From the NCBI RefSeq assembly GCF_018977255.1, contig NW_024704742.1, forward strand, positions 3,846,001 through 3,910,000: DNA of 64,000 nucleotides, given 5' to 3'. The notes under the pieces are model-generated. The model was given only the letters and a program-made list of their open reading frames with translations, was not told the DNA's origin and searched no databases. Numbering within the stretch: the first letter of the stretch is position 1; each line of letters begins with the position of its first letter. This DNA comes from Callorhinchus milii. Taxonomy: Eukaryota. Below are positions 8,571 through 53,810 of this stretch, piece by piece. The position numbers and the translations under genes are program-made.

Positions 8571-9179
8571 GTAATTCCACTGGCATCCAGAGGATAGTAT
8601 GCAAGAGATCAATTGGGATAAAGCACTTTTTCAGCCAAACCAGTTATGATTTTGGAATACCAGTTGATCTGCTTAACAAAGTAAACCAGTATTTGTAGTC
8701 TGAACAGAAATTGTAGTCTAAACATTCTTAACTAATGTCTCAATGCAAAATCAATTAAGCTGTTGAGTGACAAAGTGTTTTAAAGAGTTGAATGCATCCA
8801 GTAGCACCTTGCAAACTCATCCCCTGCAGGTATGAAGAATGAAAAGTAAAATTCAGTAATGTCAGGGAGGATACTGAGTCACACCAAGTAGCCTGCTTTC
8901 AAGCTGTTATCTGTGGTCATGTGGCTTGGCACCATGGATGTCATAGCTTTGCAGAAGTTTGAATGTGAGCCAATATTGTACATAGATTATTTTCTCCAGG
9001 GAAAAATACATTGGGATTTTGACACCTTCAGAATAAACATTGTTATCCAGTGTCGGAACCTGAAACCAAGTTATATACTTCATTCCTTCTGCTCAGTTCA
9101 TCTCTAGTATTGTTTTGGGATCAAATCTTCAACCATCAAAACCTAATTATAAGTAAAATGACAAACTAGTATTACTCAC

Positions 9180-9270
9180 CATCTCGTCTGCTAATATGCC
9201 ATTCACGTGATGTTTATGCAGCAAAGCCAACCAATTTAATCCAACTAATTGATATGCCTTAAGCTCCAAA
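9180..9270 (-). CDS. SMARCAD1: SMARCAD1 coding exon 10 (91 nt)
   Basis: [30 protein letters not shown]|gtgagt (SNF2 Q motif and start of motif I). Confidence 0.97.
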
Positions 9271-10570
9271 CTGTGAAACAGAAGCGAGACAGATATGAAT
9301 TGACAAGAAGATTAAAACAAAACTTAACAAATTGAAACACATTTAGATTTATGCTTATTTCCGGTTATGTAAGGAAAGAAGATCTGAACTAAAATATTAA
9401 TTTTGACCCTCAAAAGTTTCTATTTGAAGGATAAATTGAAGAAACGAAGAACGAAGAATGGGAGAAATATCAAAACATCTCCAGATTAAACTATTAGTGC
9501 TTTTGGAGAATATAATCCTTTAGATTTCAACTTGCTTGAGGCCCAATCTCGTAAACTGTCCAGACAACAGATGAAGTTGGGAGGACAGTCCTAAATAATA
9601 CTGAAATAAATCCTTTCACTCAACATTTCATCTGTTAAATATACTATTCACCTGATATTTATCCTCAAAGGCAACTTAATTCAGCTAATAGGATTTAAAA
9701 TCTGAAATGCTAATAGTTGGGTGGATAAAAGGTGCAACATTTTTCAAATTGAACATTGAGCGTGTTCTGTACTGTGTAATTGCATGATTTGGGTATTAGA
9801 CATTCAATCACAAAACATCAAAACTAGTTGAAAGTTAACAAGTGCATCCTGAACGTGATGACAGATCGTCAATTAACGCAAGAAATTCCAAACTCGCAAG
9901 GGCACGTCCAAATATTATTTTCTGATTAAAAAGAGCGTTCCTGAAAATAATTAACTCTTGAAAGACTCCAAATCCTAACCTGAAGACTTAAGAAATTTTG
10001 CCTTCAGGAAGCTTTTTTTTAAAAAATAAAAATTACTTTAAAGTTATTAACAGTTTTCCTAGCTCAAAGTCAAATGTAGCAATAAGCCTACGGTCTAGTC
10101 TCGTCTGTGCACAAAATAAAAACAAGTAAGGGAATTCGCAACTCTCAATCTCTGGGCTATCTGATTCAGGATGCCACATCATCTAATAAAGTTGAGGACG
10201 ACGTATTTTGATTAGTTTAATTTCTTAATTCTTTAATAGTTCTACCAATTATGTGTTTGCTCACACTGGTTTATTTTCATTTTTATTTTGATACCTTGAT
10301 GCAATAAGATATTTATTCTTGGCTTTACTCACTCAACTAAAACCAAAGGTGAAACTTAACATGCATTTCAGCTACTGGATTGCTCTGGTGACCTGCTTGA
10401 GACCAAAGTCAAGTACATCTCAGAGTACCTATACTTGAATAGAATGTATACTTCAAACCAGACAGATCAGGAATTGCCCAACTTCAGGAAAGTACAGTAC
10501 CAGTGAGTACAAAGCAACAGCCCTGCAACAGAACCTGGTTGTTAGTCGATTGGCAGATGCTTTTCTGGGA

Positions 10571-10960
10571 ATAATAATCCCACAGTAATAAATAAAAATA
10601 GTAATTTGGTCACTCAATCCACGATTGTTTATGGGACACTGCTGTGCACAATTGGGTGCTGCATTTCGCCCACAAATATACAGTCAATTCACTTTACAGT
10701 ATAATAATAATAATCCTTGCATTTGATATAGCGTTTTTCACGTCAGGAGGACGCCCCAAAGCGCTTCACAGACACACTGTAAAGTGAATTGACTGTATAT
10801 TTGTGGGCGAACGCGGCAGCCAATTGCGCACAGCAATGTCCCACAAATAGTCGTAGATTAAAAATGACCAATGTATTATTGTTTTTGGTTTTGGAGGGAT
10901 TATTATTAGACTCTGTGTGGAGTAAGGAAACTTGCCCAAGGTTTCACCCTGCCTGGAATC
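10571..10960. mobile_element. Two SINE copies tail-to-tail (10571-10702 plus, 10702-10960 minus)
   Basis: Directly visible inverted core sequences. Confidence 0.85.
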
Positions 10961-11884
10961 CGCGTGAAGGGAGCTATATAAATGCAAGTTGTTGGTGTTG
11001 AATGGGAGAATTTCCTGCTCCAGTGACTGGTCTGTCCTTTAAGTTCTGCCGATGAGCCAACGAGATTGTGATTTCATGAACAGTGCCCTGGACTATCACG
11101 GACCCTCCTGGCTCAGGAACCAGACTACTGAGACCACCACAGATGGCTGCTTGATTTCAACACTCCATTCCCAAACATGTCACCTTGGAGTCAGTTCAGC
11201 TCAAAGGAAATTAAGTCATTAAGAACAAATATGATTTAAATAGGCTATGCACTCAAAACTCAATCAAGGAATATTTTCAAATTGAGCTCCGCAACCTCAC
11301 CGTTTTAAATGCACTGCATGTGGACAGAACATTTCAGACAACACTATTTGTTTAGTTACTACAAATAAAGGAAACTTGATATGTCTTGTATCTTAAAGGC
11401 TGAACCAAATCCAGACATGTGCTTAAAGGAAACGTGTCTCATCATCCACTCCTGATTGAATCTTTTAAAAACCCTAAATGTTATTAGTCATTTATATTAA
11501 TGCAATGCATAAAGCATTTGAGAAGACATTTAAAACCTGTCATCTCTGATTTAAACTTGTTCAACTGTAGGCAAGACAGGAATGCATTGCGTAATTCAAA
11601 TCAAACTGAAACATGCTTAAGTATCCATTGGTGATACAGTATTTGGGAGAAATCAAGAGCAATTCTTTTGTGATCATTTGAGACAATATGCTTAAACATT
11701 ATCAAGAATCATAATGTCACAATATTAATGTTGGGTTAGATTTTGTCAGAGGTCGAAGGCAACTTTAGTTGAGTCGTAGACAACAAGTCCGGCAGTTTCT
11801 ATAGTGGCACCAACCATTAAAGAGACAAAGCCATTGTGTTCCCTGCATGATTACATCTAAGGTCCAGTGTTATACAATATGATA

Positions 11885-12260
11885 TATATTTATACAGCAA
11901 CGTTCCTGCAGGAGGGTGTCTAAAAGCACTTGACCCTGCTTGCTGGGCACCCAAACAGGGAGGTGGTGAGGGGGTGGTTGCGGAAGGGAGCAGGGAGGGG
12001 AGCGATGACCGAAAGTGCAGGTACAAAGGTATGTCTTGAATCAGACCATGAATGAGGAGGGGAGGGAGGAAGCAAGTTGGAGCTCCAAAGAGCGGCGGCA
12101 GAATGGCTGGAAGTCCGCTTGCGGTGGGGCAGATAGGGCAGGAAACATGAAGTTGATTGAAGGTAGCGGCTGGGTTGGTTGGGTTGAAGGAGGTCGCGAC
12201 GACACTAAGGAGGGATTTGAATGTGAGAACGACAATCTTGCATTTGAACCGCTGGGTGTT
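11885..12260 (-). mobile_element. L2 3' fragment
   Basis: QRFKCKIVVLTFKSL and a decayed tail. Confidence 0.7.
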
Positions 12261-12799
12261 ATGGTGTATGAAACTTAATACCTGTAACACGTTATTAGTC
12301 GTATGAAACACTGAAATGGGTGTAGATGTCCCACGGAAATGCGTTTCATGCATCAACACATTTTCTGCAGGATTTTTGAAGTTTGATAACACAGACAAAC
12401 ATCTTTTCCATGATATCCATATATTCACTAAATTCAGCAGTGAAATTCTGTACTTCAACCTATTTTCGATTCCATTTCTCCATTCCAGGTCTCCATAGGA
12501 GAACTGTTCCAAGAATGGTTTGTCAGCTTGAATCTGCGTGCAGATTATACACCAATTAACATTAAACAAACATCCTATGACCTTTGAAATTCTAGACTAT
12601 TACGAAGAATGTTGAAATTCATATTACATGTAATAGTTATCGTCAAATTCCCAGCAACGCACATATATTTCAGAACTCGATCTCTGAAAACGTTTTATAA
12701 GCACTTAACCATGTTCAACTTTATCTATGGCTTGGTGAAGATTCACTGAAGCCCACAAAGCAGTTTCACTGCTTTTGTCTAACTTTAAATGCATAGCAA

Positions 12800-13022
12800 C
12801 TAATAATAATAATCATCCTTACATTTGATATAGCGCTTTTCACGTCTTCTAGACGTCTCAAAGCGCTTCACAGAATAGACTGGAAAGTAATTGACTGTAT
12901 ATTTGTGAGCAAAACACGGCAGCTAATTCCGCACAGCAGTGTCCCATAAACAGTCATGGATTGAAGTGACCAATTTATTATTGTTTTTTTTCTTGAGGGA
13001 TTATTATCAGGCGTGTGGAGCA
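12800..13022 (-). mobile_element. Same SINE, 5'-truncated
   Basis: Tail and core on the minus strand, about 45 nt from the exon 9 donor. Confidence 0.85.
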
Positions 13023-13067
13023 AGAAAAATATACTTGTACACAACAAATGTATTAATCAATAATTAC

Positions 13068-13270
13068 CTTTTGTTGAGAATGTCTGGTTGTTCGATGGTA
13101 CTGTTGCTTTCACCATCATCTATAATTTGAGTCACTTGCTTTTCCAATCTTTGGGAGATGTCTGCACATCTGCACATAAGCTTATGAACTACTTCCCGCT
13201 CGTTGATGATGGTCTTGCAATGCCATATCAGGTCTTCAGACAAACCATTTGCCCGCTGGAACATTTGAAA
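13068..13270 (-). CDS. SMARCAD1: SMARCAD1 coding exon 9 (203 nt)
   Basis: cctccag|FQMFQRANGLSEDLIWHCKTII..EQPDILNK|gtaatt; phase 0 to 2. Confidence 0.96.
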
Positions 13271-16200
13271 CTGGAGGAAAAAAAAGTATAAGTTAAAAGT
13301 TAGCAAGATAAAAATGGTCAGTATTGAAATTTTTGGTATATAATTATGTTCAAGCTAAACATCGGCAATAGTTTCTCTCACTCCAACCCGATCCATACTA
13401 TTTGCCATTATCAGGATAAAGCTAGCTGAAGTCAGATATGTCAAGGCAAGTTCCAGAATAAAAGCTCCCTCTATTCTGATGAAGTGGCCTCAACTCCAAC
13501 TTCAGAACAGCACTCTTTGATGCACCAGTTCCTACAAAAATTCTGTTAGTTTCCATGGTGCAATTCACTGATATTTTAGTTCTGTGGATGACTGTTCATG
13601 GAGTACATGAGGTTGCGCACATGGATCGATTGGTCACATCTCATTGTTACTGTGAGTAGTGGCCTGTGCAGATTACCTGCACATTTTCCCAAATAAGTCA
13701 CAACAAAATAATGTTTTGAGCACTTTCAATTGCTTCATGACAAGATGTCACATCAAGTGTTTGTGGTACTGTGTTTGTGTCAAGGTTGAAACCGTCTAAT
13801 CAATTTAGGATAGAATCCTTACAGCCCCCAATCTCAGGAGATCAATAGGTTACCACCTGAATTGCTTCCACTTCCAAATAAAACTTGCAATTACAATTCA
13901 GCGTACTTAACAGGGGCTGTGTGGAAACCCGAGAAAAGCGAGAATTGTTTGTATCAATCAATTCACTGGAAAAAATAACTAAACTCTAATTTGTTAAAAA
14001 TATGAATTAAGCTAGATTTCTTCCAAGAAACCGTTTGTTGAAAAACAATTGTGAAGTGATACCATTGTTTTCTGGGCTGCACAATTCGGTTTTGTGTGGT
14101 TTTGTCAGGTAAAATTGTGCTCACATTCCTACAAAAGTAAACCCAACACCATAAATCAAAATAGAAATGGATTGTCACCTGAGAGGAAATATAGGTTAAC
14201 ATTTCAAATGTACCCTTTATCAGAACACTGAGGATCTCGATCGACTGTAGATTTACAGCATTTGATCGTTCACATTTAGTTTCTTTTTATTTGTCCCATA
14301 AATCATGTCTGGATAGAAATTTTGCATTCTCCTAAATTTGCCTCAAGTTAGAATTCATCAATGGTTGTACAAACCGGTGAGACTGTACTCATGCACAGAT
14401 AGGATTTGTTCCTACTAATTCATTCCAAAAAAGGTTCCAAAACATATTTCTGAAATTTATAATCCTGAACGCAAAGGGAAAAAATTGTAAAGCTTCACAG
14501 CATAAAATATTCAGTAACTCACAATATTCTTAGCCATTTTTACTCAGAATAGAAACATGGTCTTTAACAGACTAACGAATTTATACCAAACTAAGCTAAA
14601 ATTTATGAGAAAGAAACAGGAGAGACCAATGTGCAACATCTGTCTCTGGTCCCAAATTTTTAGAAAAGTAGCAATTCTACCTCTTAACGCGCTCAATTTC
14701 TCAACAAATATCAGTGGTAGATTTTCCAGCCCGTCTCATTTTACAAATTTTAGTGGAAAATGCACATTTTCAAATGAGGAAACCATGCAGATAATGAGCA
14801 ATACCACAAATTTAGTGCACTATATACTGCACAATATGCAAATACATCTGCTAGCAGTAAGTGGACAAATATTTTTAAATTTACCTTACTGCACAGTATA
14901 AATGATCAGACAAATACCATTAATGACCACTTGACATAATTAATCCATAAAGTTTTACATTAATGGCAGTGGTGATAGAAAATTCTTCATTAAATAGCAA
15001 TATTGTTTTAACACTAGAACTAGTCATACCAATCTCAAACATCAACACAACTATTTCAGGTTTACCACACAGCAGAAAATGTATGCACTTTGGAACTTGA
15101 ACAAAAATTATAGTAGTAATTCACTTTAATTAAATTGTTTAAATTAATTTTAATCATCTTCAAAACTTAGGGTTAGGGTTAATTTGTTAATTACATAATA
15201 AACCCTTTTATATTTGCTTAATTACATAATTAGGAGTACCCGCTATCTCTCACACATGTTTATATATGTTAATAAACTCCACTGATGAACTGGGAAAGGG
15301 TTTAAAGAATAAGAAGGACTAGTCTCAAACATAGAATTTTACGTTATGAGGAGAGATATTCAGAAAAAAAATGTTTTTATCTGAGAGAGTACTGGAGGGA
15401 GGGCAGATAGGAGGGCAGATAGGAGGGCAATGTGATAAGATTTTTAAAGTGCTGAGGGGCTACTTGATTTTACAGTGCATGTACAGAAGAGCATATTGTT
15501 ACAATTATCAACAGTAAGAATCCTTGCATTTGATATAATGCCTTATCGTGTCATCAAGACGTCTCAAAACGCTTCTCAGAATATACTGTAAAGTGAATCA
15601 ACTGCATATTTTGTGTGTAAAACGCCTCAACACAAGGAGAGATTTGTAGTACGAGAATTTGATCACAAAGCGGATATATGGAAAAGACTGCCAAGATGCA
15701 TCAATTAAAAATAAAAATAGAATCTGGGTGCTTGGGAATTTCATTGGAGGTTTTCAGGATAATCATACTGAAATGAATATATATTTCAATAGAAACTACA
15801 TGACTGGAGCCAGGGTGTTGGGAAAGAGAAATTGTCTGCAGATAGAAATAGGCTAAATGTGAAGTAGATTGAGCAAATTACATGAGTAACATAGAACATC
15901 TGTTTAGAATTCTTTCCCCTGCCTCCATGGGATGGTGTGTGAAGTCCACAATTTGGGTAGGTTTCGGTTACCGTGAAAGTTGCTTGAACGACCAAGTAAT
16001 GAACTGGATTTATGATAAATTGGGTTACAGGGAGGCAGGGCTCCAGACTACACTGACTGGTCAATTAAGGAAATGAAGGAAAGTTGGCTTCACAGTTGGC
16101 ACATTTCTGACAAAGCTCCTCACATGTGGAACTGGATTAAGCAGTTGGTAAGTGGCACTGAACGTGGACATCTAGAACATCAAGTTGTCCTGCAACTGCT

Positions 16201-19200
16201 TTCCACCATGTCAAAGGCAGATGTTCATCAAATAGCTGATAAGGAAAGTTTGACACTTGGCATAACAGCTGCTAGACACCATTACCTGGAGTCCAGGTTC
16301 AGAATCACATGCTTATTTATCCAGGGCTTGGGATCCACCTTGATTAATGAGCAAAGAAAAGCATCTGCTGCTGAAGTCCACACTATTAACTGGTGGAAAC
16401 ATTGCTCAATGGGTAAGGGCGTGGCAGGAGGATGATGGCAATTTTCTAGTGCATTTCATGCTGAGACTTGGAAGGAGTTACTAGTACTGTTCATGACAGA
16501 CCAGCTCATTGGCAGTACTTAGAGGAACATAAACGTTACTGTTTGGCTCCTAATAATCTTGTAAACCAAAGTCTTTGAAAAGGGTGGTCCTAGCAGGAAA
16601 ACGTGTGTGGTATGTGTGAGAGGAAATGAAAAAGCAAACTAGAAAAAAGATGTGCACAAGGGAGCGAAAATGAGAGAGGAAAAAATAAGAGCACAATGTG
16701 ATCCTTGAAAAATTGAAGCCAGGTCAAAAGATCATCTATTAAATCACTAATTCCAGGATCCTGGTTTTGTTTCATCAGCAAACCTGCTGACCATTGTCAA
16801 TCTACAATAGGCATCTATACAAAATACAGTAAACATTTTTAGTCAGTCAGTCACAATTATGCACTAATGCTTCAGACATTTGACTAGTCAGAATATCAGC
16901 TTCAAAAGATAAATGTGCAAATGCGTTTATTCTGTGCAATGAGAGCAAACATATTTGCTCATCATAAGCTTATTTTACAAAGGGCTCTTGGAATCCTACA
17001 AGAAAGATAACTTTTTTTCTTTCATATAATTCAAGGATCATATGTACACACATATAGAATAAGAACACCGCTAATAAATTAACCTGGACCTAACAATACA
17101 AGCACAGACAAATTGCTGCTGCCGATGATTTGTTTGTGCAAGGATTTGCTTACTATTGGATTTGACTTTGATTTTGTAACCTAGATGCAATGCTGCACTG
17201 AATTAAATCAACACTTGAGAAACATTCATTCACTTCCAGCACAAGTTGGCAATCTTCCTCCTTTTCTACACAATGTTTTTCAAAGATCAGTGATACAATA
17301 ATGGTCAAATATCAACTCAAACCTGTTTTGCCCTGGTGAAAGGAAGTAGACTATTTAATAACCCAGAGTACACAGACCCAAGATCTTGATGCAACATGTT
17401 CCATAATTCAGCATTTCTCAGTGTTCCAGGTCCCTGAACAAATTCATAGGTTCCAGAGAATTCATTTTAGAGAGTAACTGGAGACCAAGAAGAATTTTTT
17501 CCCTAAACTCCAATATCACATCCATTTGCGGCAAGTATTGACAATACTTGAGTATTTATTTAGATTGATGCAAAGGTACCAATAGTTCCAAATCCTTGAA
17601 AGATTATGGATTCCTCAAGTGCACACTATGACATTTAGTTAATGCTGAATTAATCTTTTAAATTGAGAAGTGTGGAACGAGGATGATTGTTCACAGGAGT
17701 TGAACTGCTGTTAAATTAAAACACATGAATCGTGGACACCCTCAGACAAAGGCAACTAGAAATAATACTAGCAGCAAGATCACTATAGAATTAGCGGAAA
17801 TGCAACTGTGATGACATAAACAGCATTTTCTCAAGACAATCCACTGCGCTGTGTGATTATAAACAATAATCTACAAATGAGACAGGTTCTTAATTCAGTT
17901 TGCATGAATTTTCCTCCCAGATCAAAAGTTGGAAGCTTTAGCAATTTCTGAAAATGTATTTTTTATGATGGCTGTAAGTGTATGCACCTGATGTAGATAC
18001 ACATGGAAATAGTTGGTGTTGGCTGCAGCATTCTGTCCAGTTTACTCAAGTCTACCAAAACATATTTTAAAATTTGCTAAAATGATAATCCTTTCATTTG
18101 GTGTTGTGCCTTGTCGTAAAAATAATATTTGTATTTGATATATCGCTTCATGTCTTCGAGGTGTCTCAAACAGCTTCACAGAATATACTGTAAAGTGAAT
18201 TGACTGTATTTATTTTGTATGGGCAAAATTGTGTATTGCACTTTCACATCAGGAAAGTGCCTCCCAGGATTTTTCTGTAAATTAATAATATTAATAATCC
18301 TTGCATTTGATTTAGTGCTTTTCACGTCTTCTAGACTTCTCAAAGCGCTTCACAGAATATACTGTAAAGTGAATATTTTGTGGGCAAAATTGTGGTGACT
18401 ATTATTTTTTGTAGGTGAATGCAGCAACCAAATTGCACCCAGCAAATTTGTTTATTTTCCTGACTCGCAGGAGTGGCATTAAATCGGACTAGCACTGCCT
18501 GAGGAATGAAACAAACCTCAGTCTACAGCTGCCGTCTGATCAGTTAACCCACATTTAAAACCCTGTTGCAGTAGCAAATCTACTTAATTTGCAGTTAAAA
18601 TTTATTTGGCAAGTTAATTTTATCTTTGATGCACATCAAGCAGTTTTGAAACACGATATAAATACCAGTGCCACATAACAAAATCCTCTCCCAAATACTA
18701 CTGACATATATTTAGAGGGGACTGCAGAAAGCATTGTATTAGACTTTTAGCATCTCTTTCTGAACTCATTTGTTTTTTTCAATTAGAAGAATTAGAAGAA
18801 AAAGTACCCTTTGTATTTTATGTGCCATTTGTAGCTTATTCGGTACAGTTCAGTGAAAATCTGTCATCCACAAATCAAACAGAACGAGTAGGAAGAACTA
18901 TGTTACACAGAAAAAAACCTGTAGAATGACACTTTGATTAGCCACCCAAAATCTACAATTTACACTTATAATGCCTTTTATGTTAGGACAACATCTCAAA
19001 AGACTTTACAAAGACTGAACAGGAACCCAAGCAGAGAGCTGGGGAGTGGCTGAAAGGAACCTGGGAGGTCAATATAGTCAGCACCTGAAGTTAGAGCTAC
19101 CGACTAGGGCTAAGCAGAATAGCCTTGGTGTTCTCAATTTTGAATTGGAGAAAGTTGCGTCACATCTGGGAGAAATTTACTTGTAAGATTTCAAAATTGT

Positions 19201-19724
19201 TACCACTGTGGTTTTGCAGGAACTCATACAAGAAATGGTGGGAGAAAAAGAAAAAGAGCAATCATACTATCTTGAGAAGTACAAAACCTTTTAAGTGAAC
19301 GCAATATTTTCTGGCAAAACGTGGATGATGATCATGCTTAGTTTAACTTAACTCTCGTAAGCTAAATCAAATGGCCACCGTCGCCTAAATATCAAGGAGT
19401 TCAGCCAATGGTTGTGCAGAGTCATAGAAACGTGTAAAGAAAATTACTACAGCAAAAAACAAGCAATTTAGCCCAACTAGTGTTTATACTCCACATGAGC
19501 CTCCATCTCTCCCAATTCCCTCTCCTGAACCTTTTATTCCATTCTCCCTCACGTATGGATCAAGTTTCTTCGTTAATACATTGATAGTGGGGAGCAATCA
19601 CTGAAATTTCAGAAATTGTCATGAATTGATCTTATAGCTCAATCTATAGTATGGCTCAAACACCTTTTTTTTTAAAAAACATGGCCACCACATTCACTCA
19701 TTTTCAATCCTCAGCATCGAGTAT

Positions 19725-20025
19725 GTCAACCTGGATCAGTTAGTAACACTCTTGCCTCCGAGTCAGAAGGTTGTGTGTTCAGGCCCCACAACGGGATTTT
19801 GAACTCAATGTCTAGGCTGACACTCCGGTGCAGTTCATTGTTTGAGGTACCACTCCTGCGAATAAGAAGTTAAACGGAGGTTTCTTCTGCCTGCTCAAGT
19901 CGATATTAAAGATTCCGTGGCACTATTCCAAAAGTGAAGGAAGTTTCTCCTGTACTTTACATCTGTGAAGCACCTTGAGACATCCTCCCATCGTGAAACA
20001 TACTGTACCAAATGTAAGGGTTATT
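19725..20025 (+). mobile_element. Older long SINE copy, internally deleted
   Basis: CTCTTGCCTCCGAGTCAGAAGGTTGTG..CTAGGCTGACACTCC..GGCACTATT. Confidence 0.7.
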
Positions 20026-21917
20026 CACCACCACGAGAACCAGGTTTTATACTCTTCTAAGTCCAGATAACTCTCACTCCAAGAACAAAGAGCACAGTGA
20101 TAAGTTATCCATAGTGGCAAGTTAGTCATAGGTCCTCCCTGGCCACAAGGGGGTTCTGTGACTCATGCGAGCACTCATGCTCAGCTGCAGAGGCCTCTAT
20201 TGGAGGGCCACGCCATGGCCAATCCTGCCACACTAACTTGCTAGATATTTATCAAGGCCAGTAGGTTTTCTTATTTCCGAAGCCAACAGTAACCAGCCAA
20301 GGATCCCTCATCTGGTCTGAGTAAAGAATCCTGCAAAAACAAGAGTCCAAAGGACAATCTAGACTTATTTGCTTTAAGAACTCTGCATCTTTGGTGACTT
20401 CTTTCCATTTTACTGCAAATTGCCGAGGACGGTCTTACTGTACTGTCTATTGGACCCAGAACCAGGAAATTACCTGCAATGTCACTTAACGCATTTTTAA
20501 TTGCCAACCCTTGGTGCAGGCTCACAGGCACAACCTGGGCCACAAAAGAACAGCTACAATTCTCCTTTCTTTTCCATATCAGTTTCAATGTTGGGCTCCA
20601 AGTTGTAGTATCTCTATAGTACATGTGCAGGATCTGAGGTGGCTAACTGGACTTTGAGGAAGCCCGAGTCAGCTTAAATCTTTTGTTCTTGAAGACTTCC
20701 TATTCTGGTTGAGGTGCCACTATTGAATCAACATAGTATTTTACACAGGAAAACAGTTAAGACATTTAGCGATTCAATGAATTCCTTCCATGATATTGTA
20801 AAACAGATACCCCAATCCAGAAAAACTTGCATTTTTGGCACCACTAAATAATATTATGACAACAATGTGAGCTTGTCTTATTAAAATTCAAGCCACTGCT
20901 GGAATATGGCTTCAAGCAATACAATGCATTTCAGAAAGCAGCTGCAAGCATACTCATGTGTACACACCCAACCGGCGTTTTGTAGATCCATGCTTGCAAA
21001 GCGTACAAATGTCGCAAATGTAAAAATATCCCCTTTGGAATTCTCAACTCTGACCAGACTTGTACACTAACACCTTAGTCGCCTTCAATTAAAATACTTA
21101 AAATTTTGTTCTAAAAGCTTTGTAAATGACCTCACTATTTGTCCGTTTTCCCGTGGTACATATAATTATTGGTCTATAATTTAATAATCGCTTCGATTGC
21201 AAACATTATGTTCTCAACCTGCCTGAACAAATCTCCCAATTCCAGGAAAACCCTTTATTTGAATTCCTGTCTTGCAAGATCCAACTTGTGAAATAAATGT
21301 CCCATTTTGAATAAAGAACTGTAGAATGCAATTAACTCCTTCTTCAAACAAAGTCAATTCAATACTAAAAGATTGTGAAGTTTTGAAGATCTCTATACAA
21401 TGAAATCAGATAATATATCTCTTGCTTGCTTTTCTAACCAATTTTCCCTAATGTCAGCATTTCATACATCAGCACAACCACATAGCGCAATCAAGTGGTG
21501 CAAGCTATTTTCTGAAAAACACATTTTAAATAAACTTCAAAGTATCACTTCAAAAGCAGCACTCTAACAGTTTCATATTATAGCCAAGTACTCAAAGAAA
21601 ATTGAAACAGATTGTTTGTTAAATATGTATACAATTTGGAGGGAAATTTAATCTTGAAGAAAAAACTTGAATTTGTTCACTTTTTGACACGTTTGCTGCT
21701 TTCATGTAACTAGCATTCTATGAAACCATTCCTGCTTGTTTTCTTTGATTAATCAGAAAATCAGCTGCAATCAAGATAACTAGGTGGCCATTTCATCTGT
21801 TTTTAGACTACCTTAGGCTCATAATATTACAGAGTTTCACATTTATTTTCTCCCAATTAACATTCCTAAACCTCATTCGCATTTTCAATCTCTAATATTT
21901 TAAGTAAAGGTAGTTCA

Positions 21918-22207
21918 ATAATAATAATAATCCTTGCATTTGATATCGTGCTTTTTCACATCTTTTAGACATCTCAAAGCGCTTCACAGAAGATATTGTA
22001 AAGTGAATTGACTATGTTTGTGGGCGAAACGCAGCAGCCAATTGCACACAACAGTGTCCCACAAACAGTCGTGGCTTGAAGTGACCAATTTATTATTTTT
22101 TTTCTGGAGGGATCATTATCAGCATGTAGAGTATGGAAACTTGCCCAACGTGTCGCCCTGTCGGGAATCAAACCCAGGTCTCTCGCTTGCGAGGCAAGTG
22201 CTCTAAC
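21918..22207 (-). mobile_element. Same SINE, near full length
   Basis: Tail, core, B box and anticodon arm on the minus strand. Confidence 0.88.
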
Positions 22208-23082
22208 AAAAGTAAAGGCGTATAAAGGTTTAAGTAATGGTGGTCCACTTTGTTTACAGGAGAAATACAAAAAACTCTCCATAGTAACCCTCTACTCTAA
22301 TAGTTGCTTTGCAGTCAAATAAAATCCAAACACATTGTTAGTTTCATAGGTTAAGTATGTAAACGACTTGTTTGAAGTTTTTTTTATGTAATACAGACAC
22401 ATAATTTTGGCAAGACAAATTGCTAAAAAAATACAAGAAAGGGGAAGAAAGTTCATGTTCAGTCATGAATGCTTGGCAGCTGCCAAAGAACAAGTAATAA
22501 AACTGTCAATTTAGATTAGACAAGCTGCAACAGCATCTGAAATGTGGGTGAGGTTGCTGACTGTACTGTACTGCACATTTTTAAAAATTTGTTTAAAATT
22601 TAATCGACAAAAAAGTTCTTATGTTGCATTGAGCAATCTTTGGGCCATCAATCAAAACCGCTAGAAACAAATTTAAACAAGTTTGAAAACAACATACTTG
22701 ACATGTTTCTCCTGGATTGTATCTTACGGCTTTTTTTCCTTTTTAAAAAAAAAGCTTACCGGATTTCTAAGTCTCTTTTGCAACCAACAGTAGATTGCGT
22801 TTCTTCTTTTACTCTTTGGATTTTAAAAAAATGCAAAATAAAAGCTTCAGTTACCCACAGACATTTGAAATTATTTAATTTAGACAAAGAAGCAGAGGCC
22901 TGTATAACTGCATAAAATATTGCTTAAGAACAATCAAACCAGTCTCAAATGTTTAAATTAAATAGTTGATATACCATACAATATTTATCATCCTGCAAGA
23001 TTTCTAGAGGAATTCACAACAGATTCGCCATTTTTTTAAGGATTAACAGAACAGTGATTGTAAAGGTAAAATGGCTACTTAC

Positions 23083-23535
23083 CACTGAAGCTTTCTCATT
23101 CCTGCAGGCTCTATGTCTTAAGAATTTACTTTCTCTAAACGTTGGGTTTCCAGGATATTTTCTGTGAACTGGCTATAACCAGTAGAAACCTTGCAACCTG
23201 ACTGCAAAAGCCATCCTTTTTCCATCAATACAATGCTCAAAAAAAATTCAACATAAAAACAACTGTTCCTCCTAGAAGGTGCCAAAAATATCATTGACTG
23301 CTTCTTGAGCCATATTGTTGCCCAGGAAGGTTTCTGTCCATACTCAGACTTTGAAATAGCAATAAAACATAGCCCATGCTTTTCTTCTGCAATTTTTGGA
23401 GCTGAAACAGCAAAGAACTGGGTTGCAAGCACCTCATACCTTAATGCCACTTCTTCTTTCACCCACTTCAGCCACATACATATATAGTTTCTCTGTTACC
23501 AGAATGAGTGACAGATTACCAGCCAATCAGCTTGG
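23083..23535 (-). promoter_or_regulatory. Candidate internal promoter plus non-coding alternative first exon (short SMARCAD1 isoform)
   Basis: Strong donor CAGTG|GTAAGT at 23083/23082, CCAAT box at 23523-23527, no recognisable repeat. Same intron and similar offset as the human short-isoform exon (recalled). Confidence 0.6.
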
Positions 23536-23735
23536 CTTTTTAAGTAAAAATCATCCCATATAGTATTCAAAGTAAGGTCATATGATCCTTATTTCAAATG
23601 CTATTGGTTCAGAATGAGTGTAATGTTTGAATCTCATCACATGAAGGTCATCCTTTAAAGTCTCCCTATGTGCAATAAATGTTGGTTATTTAATGATTTG
23701 GGGATTATTTTTTTCAAAAAAAAAAGCAGGCTCAC

Positions 23736-24148
23736 CAATGTCTCCCAATTGTTAAAGGGCCGGAGCTCCGTGATCTTCTGAGCCTTTCGCAAAGAACATT
23801 GAGGTATCAGTGTAAGTTCATCCAGTGTAGCATCCTGCAGGAAGCTGACAATTTTAGTCCTGCATACACCTTCCACCTCTTCATCTGCACTGCTGTAGTC
23901 CTCGTCAAGTGAACTGTCACCATCAGAAGAAAGGGGTTCTGAATCTTCGGAATCGCTGGTTTCTCTTTGAATGATTCTGCCACCTTTTCTACTTTTGTCG
24001 TGTTTTTTTATTTTACCATTCTGCTCTTCTGCTGCAGGAGTTTGTTTCAATTGCATAAGTGGCATCTCTTTTGGCTGCTTTTTAAAGTTTGAGGTGATCT
24101 CGTTTCCATTTATGTTTTTAGCTTCTGATTCAGAAGGCACTTCATCTT
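23736..24148 (-). CDS. SMARCAD1: SMARCAD1 coding exon 8 (413 nt)
   Basis: ..SSLDEDYSS..FLQDATLDELTLIPQCSLRKAQKITELRPFNNWETL|gtgagc; phase 1 to 0. Confidence 0.96.
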
Positions 24149-26084
24149 CTGAAGATATAAAAAAAATTAAATACAAACAAGTTTGGAACACTGAGAAAGT
24201 AAAACCCAGAATAAGTTTACTTTACATCTCAAAATCATTGAAGTAAGATGTTCATTGTTAATCTTATCTTCTTAAAAGCAAGAAGTAGCGATGCTATTAG
24301 GGTATATTGTGGTCTCAAATCTTAAAAGAAGTGGAGCAACAAAACCCAAATTTAAAAAAAAATAAGACTAGCAATTGATGAATCCTTCCAACATTTTTTG
24401 AGTTTCTAAAATTTGAAAACCAACACATGAAAATCAAGCATATTTTTGCTTTTGGAACCCAAAGCCTTAAACTAGTCAACAACTGCCTGCTATCTCATCT
24501 TTATCAGATTGCTGCGTTGGAAAAAAATGTTACATTAATATTTTTACTTCACCAAGTTCTACCATTTCTTTCAAACTTACCATGTTCTCTGTATCAGACT
24601 TGAGAATGGTTCAAGAAAATTAAGTTCAAGGTTAATCTTATAATTTAGAGTTCAGAAGAGAAGATAAAGATCCATAACAAACAAAAACCCATTCTAATAT
24701 ACAGTGGGATTCAAGCAAAGCTTTTCACATCAAGAATGGTTGTAGTAAATTCTACAGGAGTTATTTTTCCAGAGTACAGTGAGGCTGTTGACTTGGATTC
24801 AAAGTGTTGACTTGGATACCTTTTAAATGAACAACAAGAGCAAGTAAGAATTTCCAAACCAACTAAAGACGAATATTACTTCAGTTTCCCAAATTCAATG
24901 CAGCACTAAGTCTCCTAGTAGACTTAAAAAAAGCAAATAACTTTGCACTCTTTGAAACTAGTTTGTACAAAGGTTACTTAAATATTGCCGCAAACTAAAA
25001 ACTAAAACTGGATCTGAAAGAATCATATTGTTTCAAGCCAATGAGACAAGAGTATTTAAATGTGTCTGGATAGTGAACGTGGACTGTCATAAAACAAAAA
25101 TATGACAGTTCAGTATGTTCACAAGTCGGTTTGGGTCTTTCGGGCAATGCTGTATAATGTTTAAAGAGAATCAAAAAATGATTGTAAAAGTGCTAACTGA
25201 AATGCACAGATTATCAGCTATAATAGCATTGTTCGCTTAAGATCCGAAGAACATTTACAAATGCTTTTTGTAGAAGCTACTTACAGTAGATACTTTTGTA
25301 CATTTACCTTATGCAATTCATTCTGTACTAGAAATAGCTGCATTACCAAAAGCCTGAAAATGTAGTCTATTAAGAGACTTTATGCTGCATTACATTTTGA
25401 AAACTAAATGAATATCTGTTCTTCAGTTGGTTTGGGCACCCTTACAGCAAAGGAACAGTTTTCAGACTCTTTAAAAAGTTATACGTTTGCCTGGCAGCTC
25501 AGTGGATATACCATATGGTAAGCTACATTGACCACAAAAACCCCACCAAGGTTTGAAATCTCAACTGTGTTTACAGTGGTGGAAACAGTGGAAGCAAAAC
25601 TGGCTGAGGATGTCACAGAAGTAACGAGTGAATTCCATTGTACATTGTGTGCAGGTGGTGTTTGGCTGTGATGTCAAAGTAAAAAAGCCTGGCAAGGCTC
25701 CCAAAACCACCCATTTACGTCTATGCAACGCACCTCAGCAAGAATCACCTCCCTCAGGAAAAGAAAGAAATGTTATTCCTCTTCACTGAATCGCAAACTT
25801 GCATCACCCAACCCACTACATTCCTGTTTATGAAGGGCAACACTATTGCGATTTTGCAAACAGGATGTAGGTTATCTTTTTGATGAGGGGAAGAAAAAAA
25901 GCTTAAAATTCATTGCAATATTTTTGTTGCAACGTTAAGATTATATATGTGGGAAGTTGGTGTATTTGCAAGCAATTGCAACAATGAATAAGTTTATTAA
26001 GAACACCGCTGTAGAATGTATCACTTTAAGCGTGATTTCAATTCAAAAGCAAATACAGTGCAAAGAATTTTTGGATTTCCCCAG

Positions 26085-26480
26085 GATAATAATACTTGCC
26101 CGTGGTATAGCACCTTTCACATCAGGTGGTCATTCCAAACCTCAGGATTTACTGTGAAGCGGAGGGACTGTGTATTTGTGAGCAAACGCATAAACAGCCA
26201 ATATCCCTCAAGCAGCCATGAACGACCAATTTTTATATGGGGGAATTGTTGGCCAGAACACCCCGGGAGAAACTCCCTTCTCTTTTCAAATAGTGCCATG
26301 GACAGAAGGAAACTCAGTTTAACATCTCCTCTGAAGGACGTCATCTCCAACAATGCAACACCCCCACCCGCACCGCATTGGAGCGTCAGCTAAGACGATC
26401 AGATTGCGAGTTCCGACATGGGGCTTGATCTCACAACCATCTGACTCAAGAGGTGAGAGTGTTGCCACTGGGTCAGGCTG
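26085..26480 (-). mobile_element. Older long SINE copy
   Basis: Reverse complement of the same head, middle and tail blocks. Confidence 0.7.
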
Positions 26481-27349
26481 ACAATCTTTTTGCATAGTAC
26501 CTGGCTTTTTTTGTTTAAAAAAATGCTTCCAGGAACAAAGCAATTTGTTTGAGCATTGCTCCCTGTAGCTTCTGCGATATTCCATACAAACATATGCCAG
26601 GTGATGGATTGTTGATGAGAAGGATGTGAAATTGAAGGGGTGTCTGCAGAGTTCATTATGGGTTTCATGAAGTTGAGGTATATGAATGCCAGAGGCTCGA
26701 AGGGGGTATGAGGATAGGGCAGGGTAGTGGGACTGAATGAAACTTGCTCAGAACTGGGGCACACTCGATGGGCCTTCTTCTGTGCTGTAGATTTTTACAA
26801 TTCTACGATTCTCTGAATGGTCTCTACTTTTTTTTTTTCTACGTTATTTTTGTAGAAGATACTTCAACATTGCATGAGTTGTTGAACGTAGGTCCTCTTC
26901 AAGGTCCTGAAATAAGTATTGTACTTTTCATTACAAATGAAAATATTATAGTGTGTGAGGTAGCAGTATGTAATCACAGTTCCCAGTATAGAATCCCACG
27001 CCAAAGCTCCCCTCAGTTTATTTTCATTGAATAAATTGGAATTATTAAATCATCTGGATGTTTAAAAAAAGGTTAAACGTACGAATCTACAGAATGATAA
27101 AATTAGGAGGGAAGTTCTGGCTTTACGGAGATTTAGATAAGTGATTATCCTCTATGTCAAAAAACATAATGCAACAATTTTGGGCTGAAATATTTCACTG
27201 ATTTGACTGCAAGCAGAAACCGATCGCAGAAGCAAATACATTGAAATTATTACTGCAAAATATTTTGAAAAATGAAAAATTCTTCTTTTTTAATAGTTTA
27301 TTAAGCAAAAGCAGCTGCTTAGAAAGACACAGTTGTGAGAAAGTCTTAC

Positions 27350-27428
27350 CTTGATTGGCAAACACTTGCAAGGCTTCCAGGGCTTCCCAATAGGACCAAT
27401 CGTGTTCATTTAGAACCTCCCGGAGTTC
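27350..27428 (-). CDS. SMARCAD1: SMARCAD1 coding exon 7 (79 nt)
   Basis: ELREVLNEHDWSYWEALEALQVFANQ|gtaaga; phase 0 to 1. Confidence 0.95.
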
Positions 27429-28534
27429 CTAATGAAAGACAAGGCATAAATTGCAGTAGTAACACATTCAGGGAATGAAGACAAATTCTTCATCTGTTTA
27501 GTATCCAGGAATTTTGACCCTCTCATACTTACACAGCTAAATTAAGTATAAAAACAAATTCCTAGTTTATTTAACATCATATAATCCCTTCACATTGTCG
27601 CATTCTCAGAACAGCAACTTTAACACTAACAAAACATAATCACAACAATTAAATAGTCTACATTTCAGAAAAAGTGCCACTTAAATGTCAATCAGAAATT
27701 TTCAGAATAAACCAAGTTGATTTAATATTTAAACAACGGGTTAGACAAGGCAAAGTCACTTAGAACCAGAGGATTCTAGGTTCAAATCCTGGTGTGTCCA
27801 TTCAGCTCTTCAACCTCTCAAGACTACCATCATATTATAAAATGAAAAAGTGATTGAGTCAGTTAAAATTTGAAAATGAATAAACTACTCATCGATGGCA
27901 GATAAACAGTTATAATTCTCAAGTTCTTCAGATGAAGCTAATTAATAACTGGAGCAGGTTTCCAGAAAGGGAGGTTGAGGCTAAGGCAATCCAATGATGG
28001 GGGGACATAATTCTGGAATGAGGAGATTGTAAAGGCCAAAGGTCCTTCTTCAACCAAACAATCTTGTGATCTTTTGATGTGTGACCATGCACGATATAAA
28101 CTTCTGAAAGACAACTGATATATTCTAAAATCTTCTTGAACTTCAGGCAATAGAGTCTGGGTGTAATCAGTGCTTTGATCTGTAATTCAAAATTATCACA
28201 CTGAATGGATGATGAAGCTCCCCAAATGTCATCAGTTTCCAGCTCAACTTGACCAAATGGAATAAAGTTTCTGGATATTACTGAGACTTTATCGAAAAAA
28301 AGGCAGGATTCTGAAAATGAAGGCAAACTTTACGTATATTTTCAGCACACAGGAGAATCCAGCCTTAACAGAAAGCGCTACTGAAGATATTGGGAATTAG
28401 AAGTACTCTTGAACCAATGATTTCTGTGTTATATTTCCTGCAATCTGTGATTCATTACTTCAGGTCTTTTCTCCTTAACCATTCTGGTAACATCACTAAT
28501 ATCTACTACTAGTGATCTGCAGTAGCTCACTTTA

Positions 28535-48620: not shown

Positions 48621-48899
48621 CGATAACAATGATCACACTAACAGTGAAAAAAAAAGGGAATGATAAATCCTTGCATTTTGATACCGCCGCCCCATCGCGT
48701 CTTTGCCCCCTCTCTCCGAGCGCTTCGCGGGATATTACCGGAAGGCGAATCGACCGTTCTACTTTGTGGGACGTGACGTGGAGCGCAGCTGCGGCGCCGC
48801 CACCGCCACCACCGCCGCCACCACCACCACAACAACAACAACATGCACTGATGGAGCGCCTTTCAGGTCAGGAGGGCCTCCAAGACCAGACCACTTCAC

Positions 48900-49428
48900 C
48901 TGCTGCCGCCGTGTGGTCCTTGGGCTGTGATGGCAAAGGGAGTTCGCAGGCGTCCTCCTCCTCCTCCTCTTCCTCTTCTTCTCCTCCTCCTCCTTCTTCT
49001 TCTTCTTCCTCCTCCTCTTCCTCCCCTTCCCCGTGCGCAGGTGGCGAAGGGGGTCCGGAGTCACTCTCCTCGTGGCCGAGTAATGACGACGGTGGCGGAG
49101 GCGGTGATGATGATGATGATGGCGGCGGCGGCGGCGGAAGCGGTGACGATGATGACGACGACGACGACGATGATGAAGAAGAAGAAGAAGAAGAAGAAGA
49201 AGAAGAAGAAGAAGAAGAAGAAGAAGAAGAAGAAGAAGAAGAAGAAGAAGAAGAAGAAGAAGAAGAAGAAGAAGAAGAAGAAGAAGAAGAAGAAGAAGAA
49301 GAAGAAGAAGATGATGATGAAGAAGAAGCGGCAGCGGCAGCTCGGGAGCGGCCCCGCTCGCCGGGCCTGGGCTCGAGCCGCTCTCCTGTCTTGTGGTAAC
49401 GGAAGCGCTCGAGATTGAGGCAGCTCAT
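48900..49428 (-). CDS. SMARCAD1: SMARCAD1 coding exon 1 (529 nt; poly-Ala/Ser/Pro/Glu expanded N-terminus)
   Basis: GCCGCCATG Kozak context. MSCLNLERFRY resembles the human start MNLFNLDRFRF. Donor CAG|GTGAAG is phase 1, matching the next exon; the donor position is less certain than for the other exons. Confidence 0.85.
49175..49309 (+). repeat. (GAA)45 trinucleotide repeat inside coding exon 1
   Basis: 135 nt uninterrupted; read as TCT (Ser) on the coding strand. Confidence 0.95.
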
Positions 49429-50309
49429 GGCGGCGGGCGGGCGGGCGGGCGGTGGGGAGGGAGGGAGGGGGGGGGGGGGGGGGTGGGGGAGGAGCGGCGG
49501 CGGCGGCGGCGCGCGTGCGGTCGCACCTTTTTGAACGCGGGAGTCGGAACGGGCGACCGTTACTGCGGCAACGTCACAAGCGGCCCTCAGGCCCGCGAGG
49601 GGGAGGGGGAGGAGGAGCGGCGCGGCTCTCACTCACTCACTCTCTCTCTCTCTCTATATATATATATACACACACGAGACCTGCCTGAGGTAGTGGGTTA
49701 AACGCGAACTTATTCACGAGCCTCTGTCTTCTCCATCGTTGAGATATATATATATATATATCTATAAATTCCCCCTCCACTCCCCCGTCTCTATTTTCAA
49801 CGAAGGCCCCGAAGTCTCTCTCTCTCTCTCTCTGCGTTTTGGGGGGTGTTGTTGTTGTTGTTGTGGTGGTGGTGGTGGTTTAGGGGTTGTGTGTGTATGT
49901 GTGTGTGTGTGTTTTTCACCCCACGCGCCCCCCTCCCCTTTCTCCTCCTCCTCCTCCTCCACCAGCACCACGCGAAAGCCGTACGGGCCGGGCCGGGTCG
50001 TACGTAAGCACGCACGCACGCACGGACGGGGCGGACGCGCACGCAACGCAACGCACCGCACGCACGCACGCAACCCGGCAGCAACGAGCGCCGCGATTGG
50101 AGGAGACGGCAGGCGGCGGACCAATCGGCGGCTCCCGTGGGAAGGGGAAGGGGGGCGGGGGGAAGGAGGAGGAGGAGGAGGAGAAGAAGAAGGGGAGGTT
50201 AAAGGCCATGTACAGCCACCCCTTCCCCCCCCCCTCCCCCAAACCCCACCCGCACCCTCCCTCCCTCCCTCCTCCAACCATATATATTATACAAACACAT
50301 GGTTATGCC

Positions 50310-53108
50310 CCACCACCACCATCCCCCCACCACCCCCCTCACATCACCACACCCCACACACCACTCACACCCCCACACCACCACACCACCCACACCCCCA
50401 CCACCACACCACCCCCCACACCACCCCCCACACACCACTCACACCCCCACACCACACCACTCACCCCCACACCACACCACACCACACCATACACCCACAC
50501 CACACACACCCCCACACCACACTACCCCCACACACCACTCACACCCCCACACACACCACACCCACACCCCCCACACACACACACCCCCACACCCCACACC
50601 ATACACCCACACCACACACACCCCCACACCACACTACCCCCCACACACCACTCACACCCCCACACACACCACACCCACACCCCCCACACACACACACCCC
50701 CACACCATACACCCACACCACACCACCCCCCACACACACACCCCCCCACACCGTACACCCACACCACACCACACCCCCCACACACACCACACCCCCCACA
50801 CACACCACACCACTCACACCCCCACACCACACCACCCTCCCCACACCATACACCCACACCACACCACCACCCCCACACCACACACCCCCCCACACCCCAC
50901 ACCATACACCCACACCACACCACCCCCACACCCACACCACCACACCACCCCCCATACCACACCACCACCCCACACCACCACACCACCCCCACACCACACC
51001 ACCCCCACACCCACACCACCACACCACCCCCCACACCCACACACCACACACCACACCACCCCCCATACCACACCACCACCCCACACCCACACCACCACAC
51101 CACCCCCCACACCACACCACCCCCCACACCCACACCACCACACCACCCCCCAAACCCACACACCACACACCACACCACCCCCCACACCACACCACCCCCC
51201 ACACCACACCACCCACCACACCACACACCCCCCACACACCACACCACCCTCCCCACACCCACACCACCAGCCCCCACACCATACACCCACACCACACACA
51301 CCCCCCCACACCCCACACCATACACCCACACCACACCACCCCCCACACCACCACACCACCCCCCACACCACACACCACACCACCACCCCCACACCCACAC
51401 CACCACCCCCCACACCATACACCCACACCACCCCCCACACACACCCACACACCACACCCCCACACCACACCACCCTCCCCACACCCACACCACCCTCCCC
51501 ACACCCACACCACCACCCCCCACACACACACCACCCCACACCATACACCCACACCACCCCCACACACACACCATACACCCACACCACACCACCCCCCACA
51601 CCACACCACCCCCACACCACACCACCCCCACACCCACACCACCACCCCCCACACCATACACCCACACCACACCACCCCCCACACCCACACCACCACACAC
51701 CACCCCCCACACCCACACCACACCACCACCCCCCACACCACACACCCACACCACCACACCATACACCCACACCACACCACCCCCCACACCCACACCACCA
51801 CCCCCCACACCATACACCCACACCACTCACACCCCCACACCACACCACCCCCACACCACACACCCCCCACACACCACACCACCACCCCCCACACCATACA
51901 CCCACACCACTCACACCCCCACACCACACCACCACCCCCCACACCACACACCCACACCACCACACCATACACCCACACCACACCACCCCCACACACACAC
52001 CCCCCACATCCCACACCACACCACCCCCACACCCACACCACCACACCACCCCCACACCACACACCCCCCACACACCACACCACACCACCACCCCACACCA
52101 CACCACCCCCCACACCCACACACCACACCACCCCCCACACCCACACCACCCTCCCCACACCCACACCACCACCCCCCACACACACACCACCCCACACCAT
52201 ACACCCACACCACCCCCCACACACACACCATACACCCACACCACACCACCCCCCACACCACACCACCCCCCACACCACACCACCCCCACACCCACACCAC
52301 CACCCCCCACACCATACACCCACACCACACCACCCCCCACACCCACACCACCACACACCACCCCCCACACCCACACCACACCACCACACCACACACCCAC
52401 ACCACCACACCATACACCCACACCACACCACCCCCACACCCACACCACCACCCCCCACACCATACACCCACACCACTCACACCCCCACACCACACCACCC
52501 CCCACACCACACACCCCCACACACCACACCACCACCCCCCACACCATACACCCACACCACTCACACCCCCACACCACACCACCACCCCCCACACCACACA
52601 CCCACACCACCACACCATACACCCACACCACACCACCCCCCACACACACCCCCCCACATCCCACACCACACCACCCCCACACCCACACCACCACACCACC
52701 CCCCACACCACACACCCCCCACACACCACACCACACCACCACCCCCACACCACACCACCCCCCACACCCACACACCACACCACCCCCACACCACACCACC
52801 CCCCACACCACCCCCACCACACACACCCCCACACCCCACACCATACACCCACATCACACCACCCCCCCACACCCACACCACCACACCACCCCCCACACCA
52901 CACACCCCCCACACACCACCACCCCCACACCACACCACCCCCCACACCCACACACCACACACCACACCACCCCCACACCACACCACCCCCCACACCACAC
53001 ACCCCCCACACACCACACCACCCTCCCCACACCCACACCACCAGCCCCCACACCATACACCCACACCACACACACCCCCACACCACAACCCCCCCACACC
53101 ACACCCCC
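50310..53108 (+). repeat. 2.8-kb irregular C/A low-complexity satellite
   Basis: Almost only C and A, with recurring CACACCATACACCCACACCA and CACACCACTCACACCCCCAC variants. Confidence 0.95.
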
Positions 53109-53810
53109 AAAAAAATATGCGGTCAAGTCACTTTACAGTATATTCCACGAAGCGCTCGGAGACGCCTCAAAGGCGCCGCGTCAAAATGCGAGAGTTATTA
53201 TTATTTCAATAAGTTATAAATGTAATTGTTATAATCATCATCATTATTGTAATTATACTAAATCACTTATTATTCTGATGATGATAATTATTTCTGATTA
53301 TAATAAACGCCTCTGGAGTTCCCACGCCTCGGCGGGGAGGGCACGGGGAAACGAATGATCGTCCTCGTCATCGGTTCACTCATTTCGATCCGCCGCCGTG
53401 CGAGGGCTCGCCGCTGTGCGCAATTTGGCCGTCGCGTTACGCACCGCATGCTATATACGGTCTGTTCGCTTTACAGTAACGTTCTGCGCTTTTGAGGCGT
53501 CGATAAGGCGCTATATCAAATGCAAGGGTTATTTATTAACGTGTTTGGTTTGGATACTCTTAAGCATGGTGATGGCTTTCCGCGTGCGTCAGATACCCAG
53601 CCGACCCCCCCAAAAAAGCAGTGTCTTGTCTGGTTCTCGACTGTCCTTCAACCCCCCCCCCCACTCTCCCCAACACACACACACACACACACACACACAT
53701 GCTCTTATTCAAAAAAAGAAGGGAGTTTTTCTCTCCCGGTGTCCTGGCCAATAACCCCCAAAATAAAAAAAAATGATCACTCACTCCATGGCTGTTTGTG
53801 GGATATTGTA

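Follow-up and report, generated by a model that had tools for sequence, protein, structure and literature searches.

The window, a stretch of 64,000 nt from the genome of Callorhinchus milii, carries the SMARCAD1 gene on its minus strand; the CpG-rich 5′ end of the gene lies near 48-50 kb of the window, and the gene extends beyond window base 1. In the zone of this 5′ end (approximately 48800-53200), the GC content is 0.58-0.66, the surroundings of exon 1 contain long triplet runs coding for Ser and Glu, and upstream there is a simple repeat of approximately 3 kb with a strong strand skew (GC skew to -0.85). To positions 9000-27600 we mapped the Logan contigs of four runs (X1, X2, X3 and X5), which were taken to be RNA by guess and whose status rests on GT..AG joints at known exon borders. 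Because such joints are present in all four runs both between exons 10 and 11 (9270-13068) and between exons 8 and 9 (24148-27350), the runs contain spliced RNA, and these RNA-type contigs place the end of exon 8 at 27350 and the start of exon 11 at 9270. Exon 9 closes with AAT TGG GAG ACA TTG, the last base being 23736, and the intron opens with GTGAGC at 23735; the GT..AG joint between exons 9 and 10 (13270-23736) was found in three of the four runs, with depths, among the joints listed, of 121 in X2, 27 in X3 and 105 in X5. When compared with SMARCAD1 chain 9jao_C, the translation of exon 9 corresponds to residues 120-246 (E 9.4e-27) and exon 10, starting FQMFQRANGLSEDL, to residues 249-312 (E 2.1e-18). 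Exon 10 matches C. milii proteins at 100% identity, and the cluster of P0002 contains C. milii entries only. Intron 9, which separates exons 9 and 10, is 10,465 nt long (Table 1).

Table 1. Features of the SMARCAD1 locus around intron 9 (positions are those of the window)
Feature	Position	Strand	Remarks
Exon 9, long isoform	23736..24148	-	ends NNWETL, then the canonical donor TTG/GTGAGC
Putative internal promoter region	23482..23735	-	first 254 nt of intron 9; promoter function putative
TGACCT, two copies (AGGTCA on the + strand)	23650-23645, 23580-23575	-	motif positions
11-nt direct repeat CACTCATTCTG	23620-23610, 23510-23500	-	overlooked in the original prediction
Forward CCAAT	23607-23603	-	motif position; overlooked in the original prediction
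Inverted CCAAT (ATTGG)	23527-23523	-	inside AGCTGATTGGCTGG at 23532-23519; 444 nt upstream of 23083
Alternative first exon, long non-coding form	23083..23481 (minimal extent)	-	joint 13270-23083
Short coding form of the first exon	23434..23481	-	ATG 23481-23479 to AAG 23442-23440, encodes MYVAEVGERRSGIK
Donor GTG/GTAAGT of the long first exon	23077..23085	-	used in RNA contigs; last exon base 23083
Intron removed in the short-isoform transcript	13271..23082	-	9,812 nt; CT..AC on the + strand = GT..AG on the gene strand
Exon 10, common to both isoforms	13068..13270	-	begins TTT CAA ATG (FQM)

Two further features of this part of the gene were recorded in the contigs. At position 13148, the contigs of X1, X2 and X3 have C where the window has T, and X5 has the window letter; on the gene strand an Arg codon of exon 10 changes in its third base, AGA>AGG, and the polymorphism is hence silent. 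In addition, contigs over the stretches 10242-11483, 12726-13346, 17694-18935, 21420-22661 and 25767-26387 reach intronic depths of 10^3-10^5 with many cross-joints in all four runs, which is the pattern of genome-wide transcribed high-copy interspersed repeats.

The original prediction had proposed that the first part of intron 9 holds an ancient counterpart of the skin-type promoter and first exon of human SMARCAD1, in a block without any recognisable repeat. Block 23000-23735 does indeed match nothing but itself in the 0.99-Gb assembly (1,762 contigs), and exon 10 is also present as a single copy in the genome, so that a retrocopy does not account for these sequences. The donor named in that prediction, CAGTG/GTAAGT at 654 nt into the intron that follows NNWETL, is exactly where it had been placed, with G(+1) at nt 654 of intron 9 and 23083 as the last exon base, and a rough weight matrix places it second among all 595 GT sites of the intron. 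The predicted junction of 23083 with 13270, which had been proposed as a check, was looked for in the RNA-type contigs and found as a GT..AG joint: among the joints listed, it is present in two of the four runs, X1 (depth 1250, short side of 29 letters) and X2 (depth 2.9, side of 28 letters), both of which come from one study. The acceptor at 13270 is common to this joint (X1, X2) and to the canonical joint with 23736 (X2, X3, X5); contigs drop rare variants, and an unlisted 23083 joint in X3 and X5, or an unlisted 23736 joint in X1, is therefore not counted as absent. In X2, record 13 spans 23083-23392 of the first exon.

A second donor, AAG/GTATGA (23439-23434), lies 357 nt upstream of the 23083 donor and ranks seventh of the 595 GT sites; neither it nor the ATG at 23481 figured in the original prediction. 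The 23440 joint is absent among the 15 joints listed, beside which there are 718 further joints. There appears to be one first exon with two donors, 23083 and 23440. If the gene model XP_007900701.1 is right, transcription must start upstream of the ATG at 23481 with which it opens. We also derived a start placement from the mean depth of the X1 contig (335), which gave approximately 240 nt; it was rejected, because the depth is one figure per contig and the placement conflicts with the ATG at 23481.

What would be translated from these transcripts? In the long leader, a TAG at 23175-23173 is in frame with exon 10 and is followed by no in-frame ATG before exon 10, the first one being 6 nt into that exon; the reading frame therefore opens at the Met of exon 10 codon 3 (13264-13262 on the minus strand), which is the third-codon ATG noted in the original prediction and the predicted start of a 597-aa product. 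If transcription starts upstream of 23481, the leader contains 12 upstream ATGs, of which the one at 23099 opens the last upstream ORF; this ORF crosses the joint and overlaps the main ATG, whose own context is weak (C at -3, T at +4). Judged from the sequence, the upstream ATGs and the weak start context raise doubt as to the amount of protein that is made. In the long-exon form, the ATG at 23481 opens an upstream ORF of 15 codons, and via the 23440 donor it is in frame with exon 10. Another upstream ORF, of 119 codons (23477-23121), was considered as a real protein and dismissed, as it matched no Pfam family and its best Atlas score reached 0.78, at low recognition.

The product of the long-leader form is the 597-aa P0125, which starts MFQRANGLSEDL and has the NCBI model XP_007900702.1 (starting MFQRANG); the 613-aa P0129 (XP_007900701.1) starts MYVAEVGERRSGIK, its first 14 residues being encoded at 23481-23440. 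Both models entered our protein collection via the EukProt copy of RefSeq only, and not among the NCBI-sourced members. Two domains are retained in the short forms: SNF2-rel_dom (E 1.3e-72), located in P0125 at residues 72-356, and Helicase_C (E 1.6e-24), located at residues 426-538. In the long form, Pfam gave no CUE match at E <= 0.001, and the sole match under a laxer setting, at residues 145-171, scored 19.3 bits (E 8.8e-4) where the cut-off is 21.1 bits; no Pfam family was obtained for the exon that carries the first CUE-like stretch when it was searched separately.

The sequence between exon 9 and the ATG at 23481 is the putative internal promoter region. The CCAAT box that the original prediction had set at 23519-23532, approximately 440 nt upstream of the donor, and the AGGTCA half-sites near 23575 and 23645 were all recovered at those places, together with a forward CCAAT and an 11-nt direct repeat (Table 1). 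CCAAT-type boxes occur here at background frequency, as 25 of them in the 10,465 nt of the intron correspond to approximately 0.6 expected in 254 nt, where two are seen, and promoter-type motifs by themselves prove nothing. As statistical evidence, the TGACCT pair and the 11-nt repeat were discarded: they are mildly unusual, but they were chosen post hoc. On the plus strand, the AGGTCA half-sites are contained in a 15-nt direct repeat, AAGGTCAT (23567-23581 and 23637-23651), whose copies are 80% identical and 70 nt apart, and the first half-site is also inside a 20-nt imperfect palindrome. The two half-sites form what we take to be a possible nuclear-receptor-type site pair.

We then considered short SMARCAD1 models in other vertebrates, which were collected by a length-restricted protein search (198-630 aa) and by cluster look-ups, so that the rows counted below are clusters or their members, not species. 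Models of 595-628 aa were found for one shark-clade species, one teleost, and for frogs, birds, squamates and mammals, the mouse among them. They comprise a shark-clade model of 600 aa (XP_078064934.1); a teleost Logan transcript of 596 aa (P0147), whose cluster includes Monopterus albus; two Xenopus models of 618 aa (XP_031755390.1 and XP_018098900.1), with frog rows from Xenopus tropicalis, from X. laevis and from Engystomops; a cluster of birds that includes Melopsittacus; a 597-aa model of Micrurus spixii (A0A2D4MHV4); and mammalian models that include Physeter and Mus musculus, the latter of 596 aa and starting MSKINGLSEDL (XP_006505576.1, P0286). The species of P0017 and P0250 is nested in the sister clade of Callorhinchus with support of 99 and 96 (FastTree, 49 chosen rows), and this clade includes a cluster with Scyliorhinus torazame.

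No fewer than 26 of the 30 short rows begin at or directly before exon 10, and where long partners from the same species were compared, the foreign N-termini join precisely at the first codon of that exon. Fifteen of the 26 have extra residues from another first exon; the other 11 start at a Met within the first four codons of exon 10, and, the foreign models being automatic predictions, these 11 may reflect 5′-incomplete evidence. Among 113 full-length rows, codon 4 of exon 10 is M in 72 and F in 11 of the shark clade, and in the nine C. milii rows the M stands at codon 3. If exon 10 is without such a Met, the first exon supplies the ATG, often as its last codon (P0017, P0133, P0265 and P0267). 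P0132, too, has ATG as the closing codon of its first exon; in C. milii that codon is GTG, and the Met is in exon 10. A T at donor position -2 is uncommon, with a frequency of approximately 0.14. The last first-exon residue in the 12 foreign models with a clear border is M in five, L in three, V in one, K in one and P in two. The nine ending in M, L or V imply a T at donor -2, as in GTG/GT here and TG/GT in human, a count that comes from protein models only and covers three lineages, nine of the models being from non-pipid frogs. At the level of sequence, we regard this T as a hint of an orthologous donor.

How do transcripts with the 23083 joint arise? They might come from the normal promoter and be spliced not at the donor of exon 9 but at a cryptic one lying 653 nt further downstream; exon 9 would then be lengthened and run into a premature stop, and the transcripts would be a by-product bound for decay. 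A single contig of X1 (record 6, depth 335) indeed runs unbroken from exon 9 to the donor (23083-24150), and the frame of exon 9 hits a stop shortly after 23735. However, in X1 the joint of exons 8 and 9 has a depth of 72.9 against 1250 for the 23083 joint, approximately 17 times as much, and 1479 for the contig with the joint of exons 10 and 11, from which it follows that at most approximately 6% of the 23083-joint transcripts passed the exon 8-9 joint; these depths are one figure per contig, and contigs show neither 5′ end, strand nor level. In X1, most of the transcripts that reach exon 10 come via the 23083 donor. The depth contrast implies that most 23083-joint transcripts have their start somewhere from 24148 to 23083, at the putative internal promoter, and it argues for an internal start that is independent of the long isoform. 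The NCBI model of 613 aa, moreover, requires a first exon that begins in intron 9, and we consider both the use of a cryptic donor by upstream transcripts and their fate as decay by-products to be improbable. Far less credible still is the view that a consensus-like GT and common promoter words have come together by chance in an AT-rich intron and have no biological use. The background frequency of the CCAAT-type boxes would agree with chance, as would the ease with which consensus-like donors arise, since one other GT site of intron 9 outscores 23083; yet the exact joint occurs in RNA-type contigs of two of the four runs, in one at a depth of 1250, and two independent NCBI gene models use the region, which leaves chance hardly any room.

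A more serious alternative accepts the short isoform of C. milii as real and holds that it evolved independently, its likeness to human SMARCAD1-s being convergent. In favour of this, the Met positions are one codon apart, the first-exon peptides of separate lineages have no visible likeness, and frogs have several first exons, which end in K or P besides M, L and V; PMC8659716 (2021), furthermore, reports no mouse counterpart of SMARCAD1-s in UCSC mm10. That last point is contradicted by the mouse gene model XP_006505576.1, if the model is accurate. Convergence is also at odds with the use of the same intron and the same acceptor in every lineage sampled, with the T at donor -2 that is common to human, C. 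milii and nine of the 12 foreign models, and with the finding that the first exon gives a start codon exactly where exon 10 lacks the Met. We judge independent origins unlikely, while giving them more weight than either of the two explanations above.

The best explanation of the intronic block, and in our view a probable one, is that a short SMARCAD1 isoform of C. milii has its alternative first exon there, probably along with its internal promoter; of the reality of the first exon and the short isoform themselves we are highly confident. In the mechanism that we propose, RNA polymerase II would start in the first approximately 250 nt of intron 9, near the two CCAAT-type boxes. Splicing from the donor at 23083 would yield a leader laden with upstream ORFs, with a 597-aa product initiated at Met-3 of exon 10; splicing from the donor at 23440 would bring the ATG of the first exon itself into frame, for a product of 613 aa. 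The N-terminal half, including the CUE region, would be missing from both, and SNF2 and Helicase_C would be retained. Translation from the long leader is expected to be damped, as has been described for human exon 1.

The original prediction further suggested that a CUE-less, ATPase-only isoform may be older than the split of cartilaginous and bony fish. This is supported in part, by the short models across jawed vertebrates, and weakened in part, by the F that shark-clade rows have at the human Met position. We lean towards common descent with the human isoform and an origin before the split, as read from sequences and gene models; the occurrence across jawed vertebrates of short models with an identical exon junction fits such an origin. 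More tentatively, and with rather more doubt than conviction, we speculate that the internal promoter of SMARCAD1-s and its NTG/GTAAG donor might be one orthologous module inherited from the jawed-vertebrate ancestor, in which the start codon has hopped. The start would then lie in the last codon of the first exon in the shark clade, several frogs and Xenopus tropicalis, in codon 3 of exon 10 in the chimaera, and in codon 4 in mammals, birds, squamates and some frogs, and selection might always have held it no more than a few codons from the exon border. Taken together, our results suggest that a truncated form of SMARCAD1 is far older than fingerprints.

In the literature covered, human SMARCAD1-s appears solely as a human skin-type isoform, the loss of which removes fingerprints, and, with a mouse counterpart denied in the 2021 paper, animal models are lacking. 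If jawed vertebrates have this isoform in common, its basic function predates dermal ridges, and Xenopus, chick, zebrafish relatives, shark embryos or mouse could serve for its study. If, beyond that, the module reading is true, the ancestral role of this CUE-less remodeller would be unrelated to fingerprints, and mouse, frog, bird and shark models for human ectodermal dysplasias would already exist. The combination of a leader laden with upstream ORFs and a moving start codon would then also provide a natural comparative test of the dosage control proposed for human exon 1. The short isoform of C. milii is itself already in the databases, where it was modelled by NCBI, and how far it extends across jawed vertebrates appears to be unpublished: our literature search, in a library with few subscription journals, found no paper on the short isoform outside human, which is a weak negative.

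It is instructive to compare the C. milii locus with systems already described. The two NCBI models, XP_007900702.1 and XP_007900701.1, are identical to the two products deduced here; in contrast, they are proteins only, and are silent on the human disease isoform, the upstream ORFs and the evolutionary reach. With full-length SMARCAD1 and yeast Fun30, a CUE-containing SNF2 remodeller, the short form shares the ATPase core (SNF2-rel_dom and Helicase_C) and differs in being without all of exons 1-9, including the CUE region. Compared with the short models of other vertebrates, it differs in the first-exon peptide, which varies between lineages; the two Xenopus peptides are identical at 15 of 18 residues.

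The founding paper on human SMARCAD1-s is reportedly that of Nousbeck in 2011. According to two later sources (a 2026 preprint; PMC8659716), human exon 1 is a non-coding exon of 378 nt in intron 9 (hg38 chr4:94,253,294-94,253,671, with a predicted promoter at 94,253,114-94,253,350), it carries upwards of 20 putative upstream ORFs and dampens the output of protein, and its donor, TG/GT, has disease variants at +1G, +2T, +3A and +5G. The same sources give an intron of approximately 10.5 kb, an ATG 9 nt into exon 2, a product of 596 aa without both CUE domains and expression that peaks in skin, nail, tongue and oesophagus; NLS1, too, is absent from the short form (2026 preprint). They agree with what the original prediction had stated of the human gene, namely a non-coding first exon in the same intron and a Met a few codons into the next exon.

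The resemblance of C. milii to human extends to most parts of the architecture. The first exon is found within the intron that precedes the exon encoding residues approximately 428 onward (human intron 9), it is non-coding with many upstream ORFs, its donor agrees with TG/GTA.G at all six positions known for human, and it is joined across an intron of approximately 10 kb (9.8 kb in C. milii) to the acceptor that the long isoform uses for its exon 9 joint. The start Met is within the first four codons of the next exon, the products of 597 and 596 aa are without the CUE region and keep the ATPase, and usage is strongly sample-dependent, the C. milii joint dominating one run. There are two differences: C. 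milii has the second donor at 23440, leading to the 613-aa form with 14 residues of its own, and its Met is codon 3, whereas that of human is codon 4, M3 of C. milii exon 10 aligning with K249 of 9jao_C and M250 of the latter with F4. The counterpart relation put forward in the original prediction accordingly stands as regards the intron, the acceptor, the non-coding leader and the product length, and does not hold for the exact start codon, which is one codon off. Judged by architecture, the C. milii exon and isoform are a real counterpart of human SMARCAD1-s.
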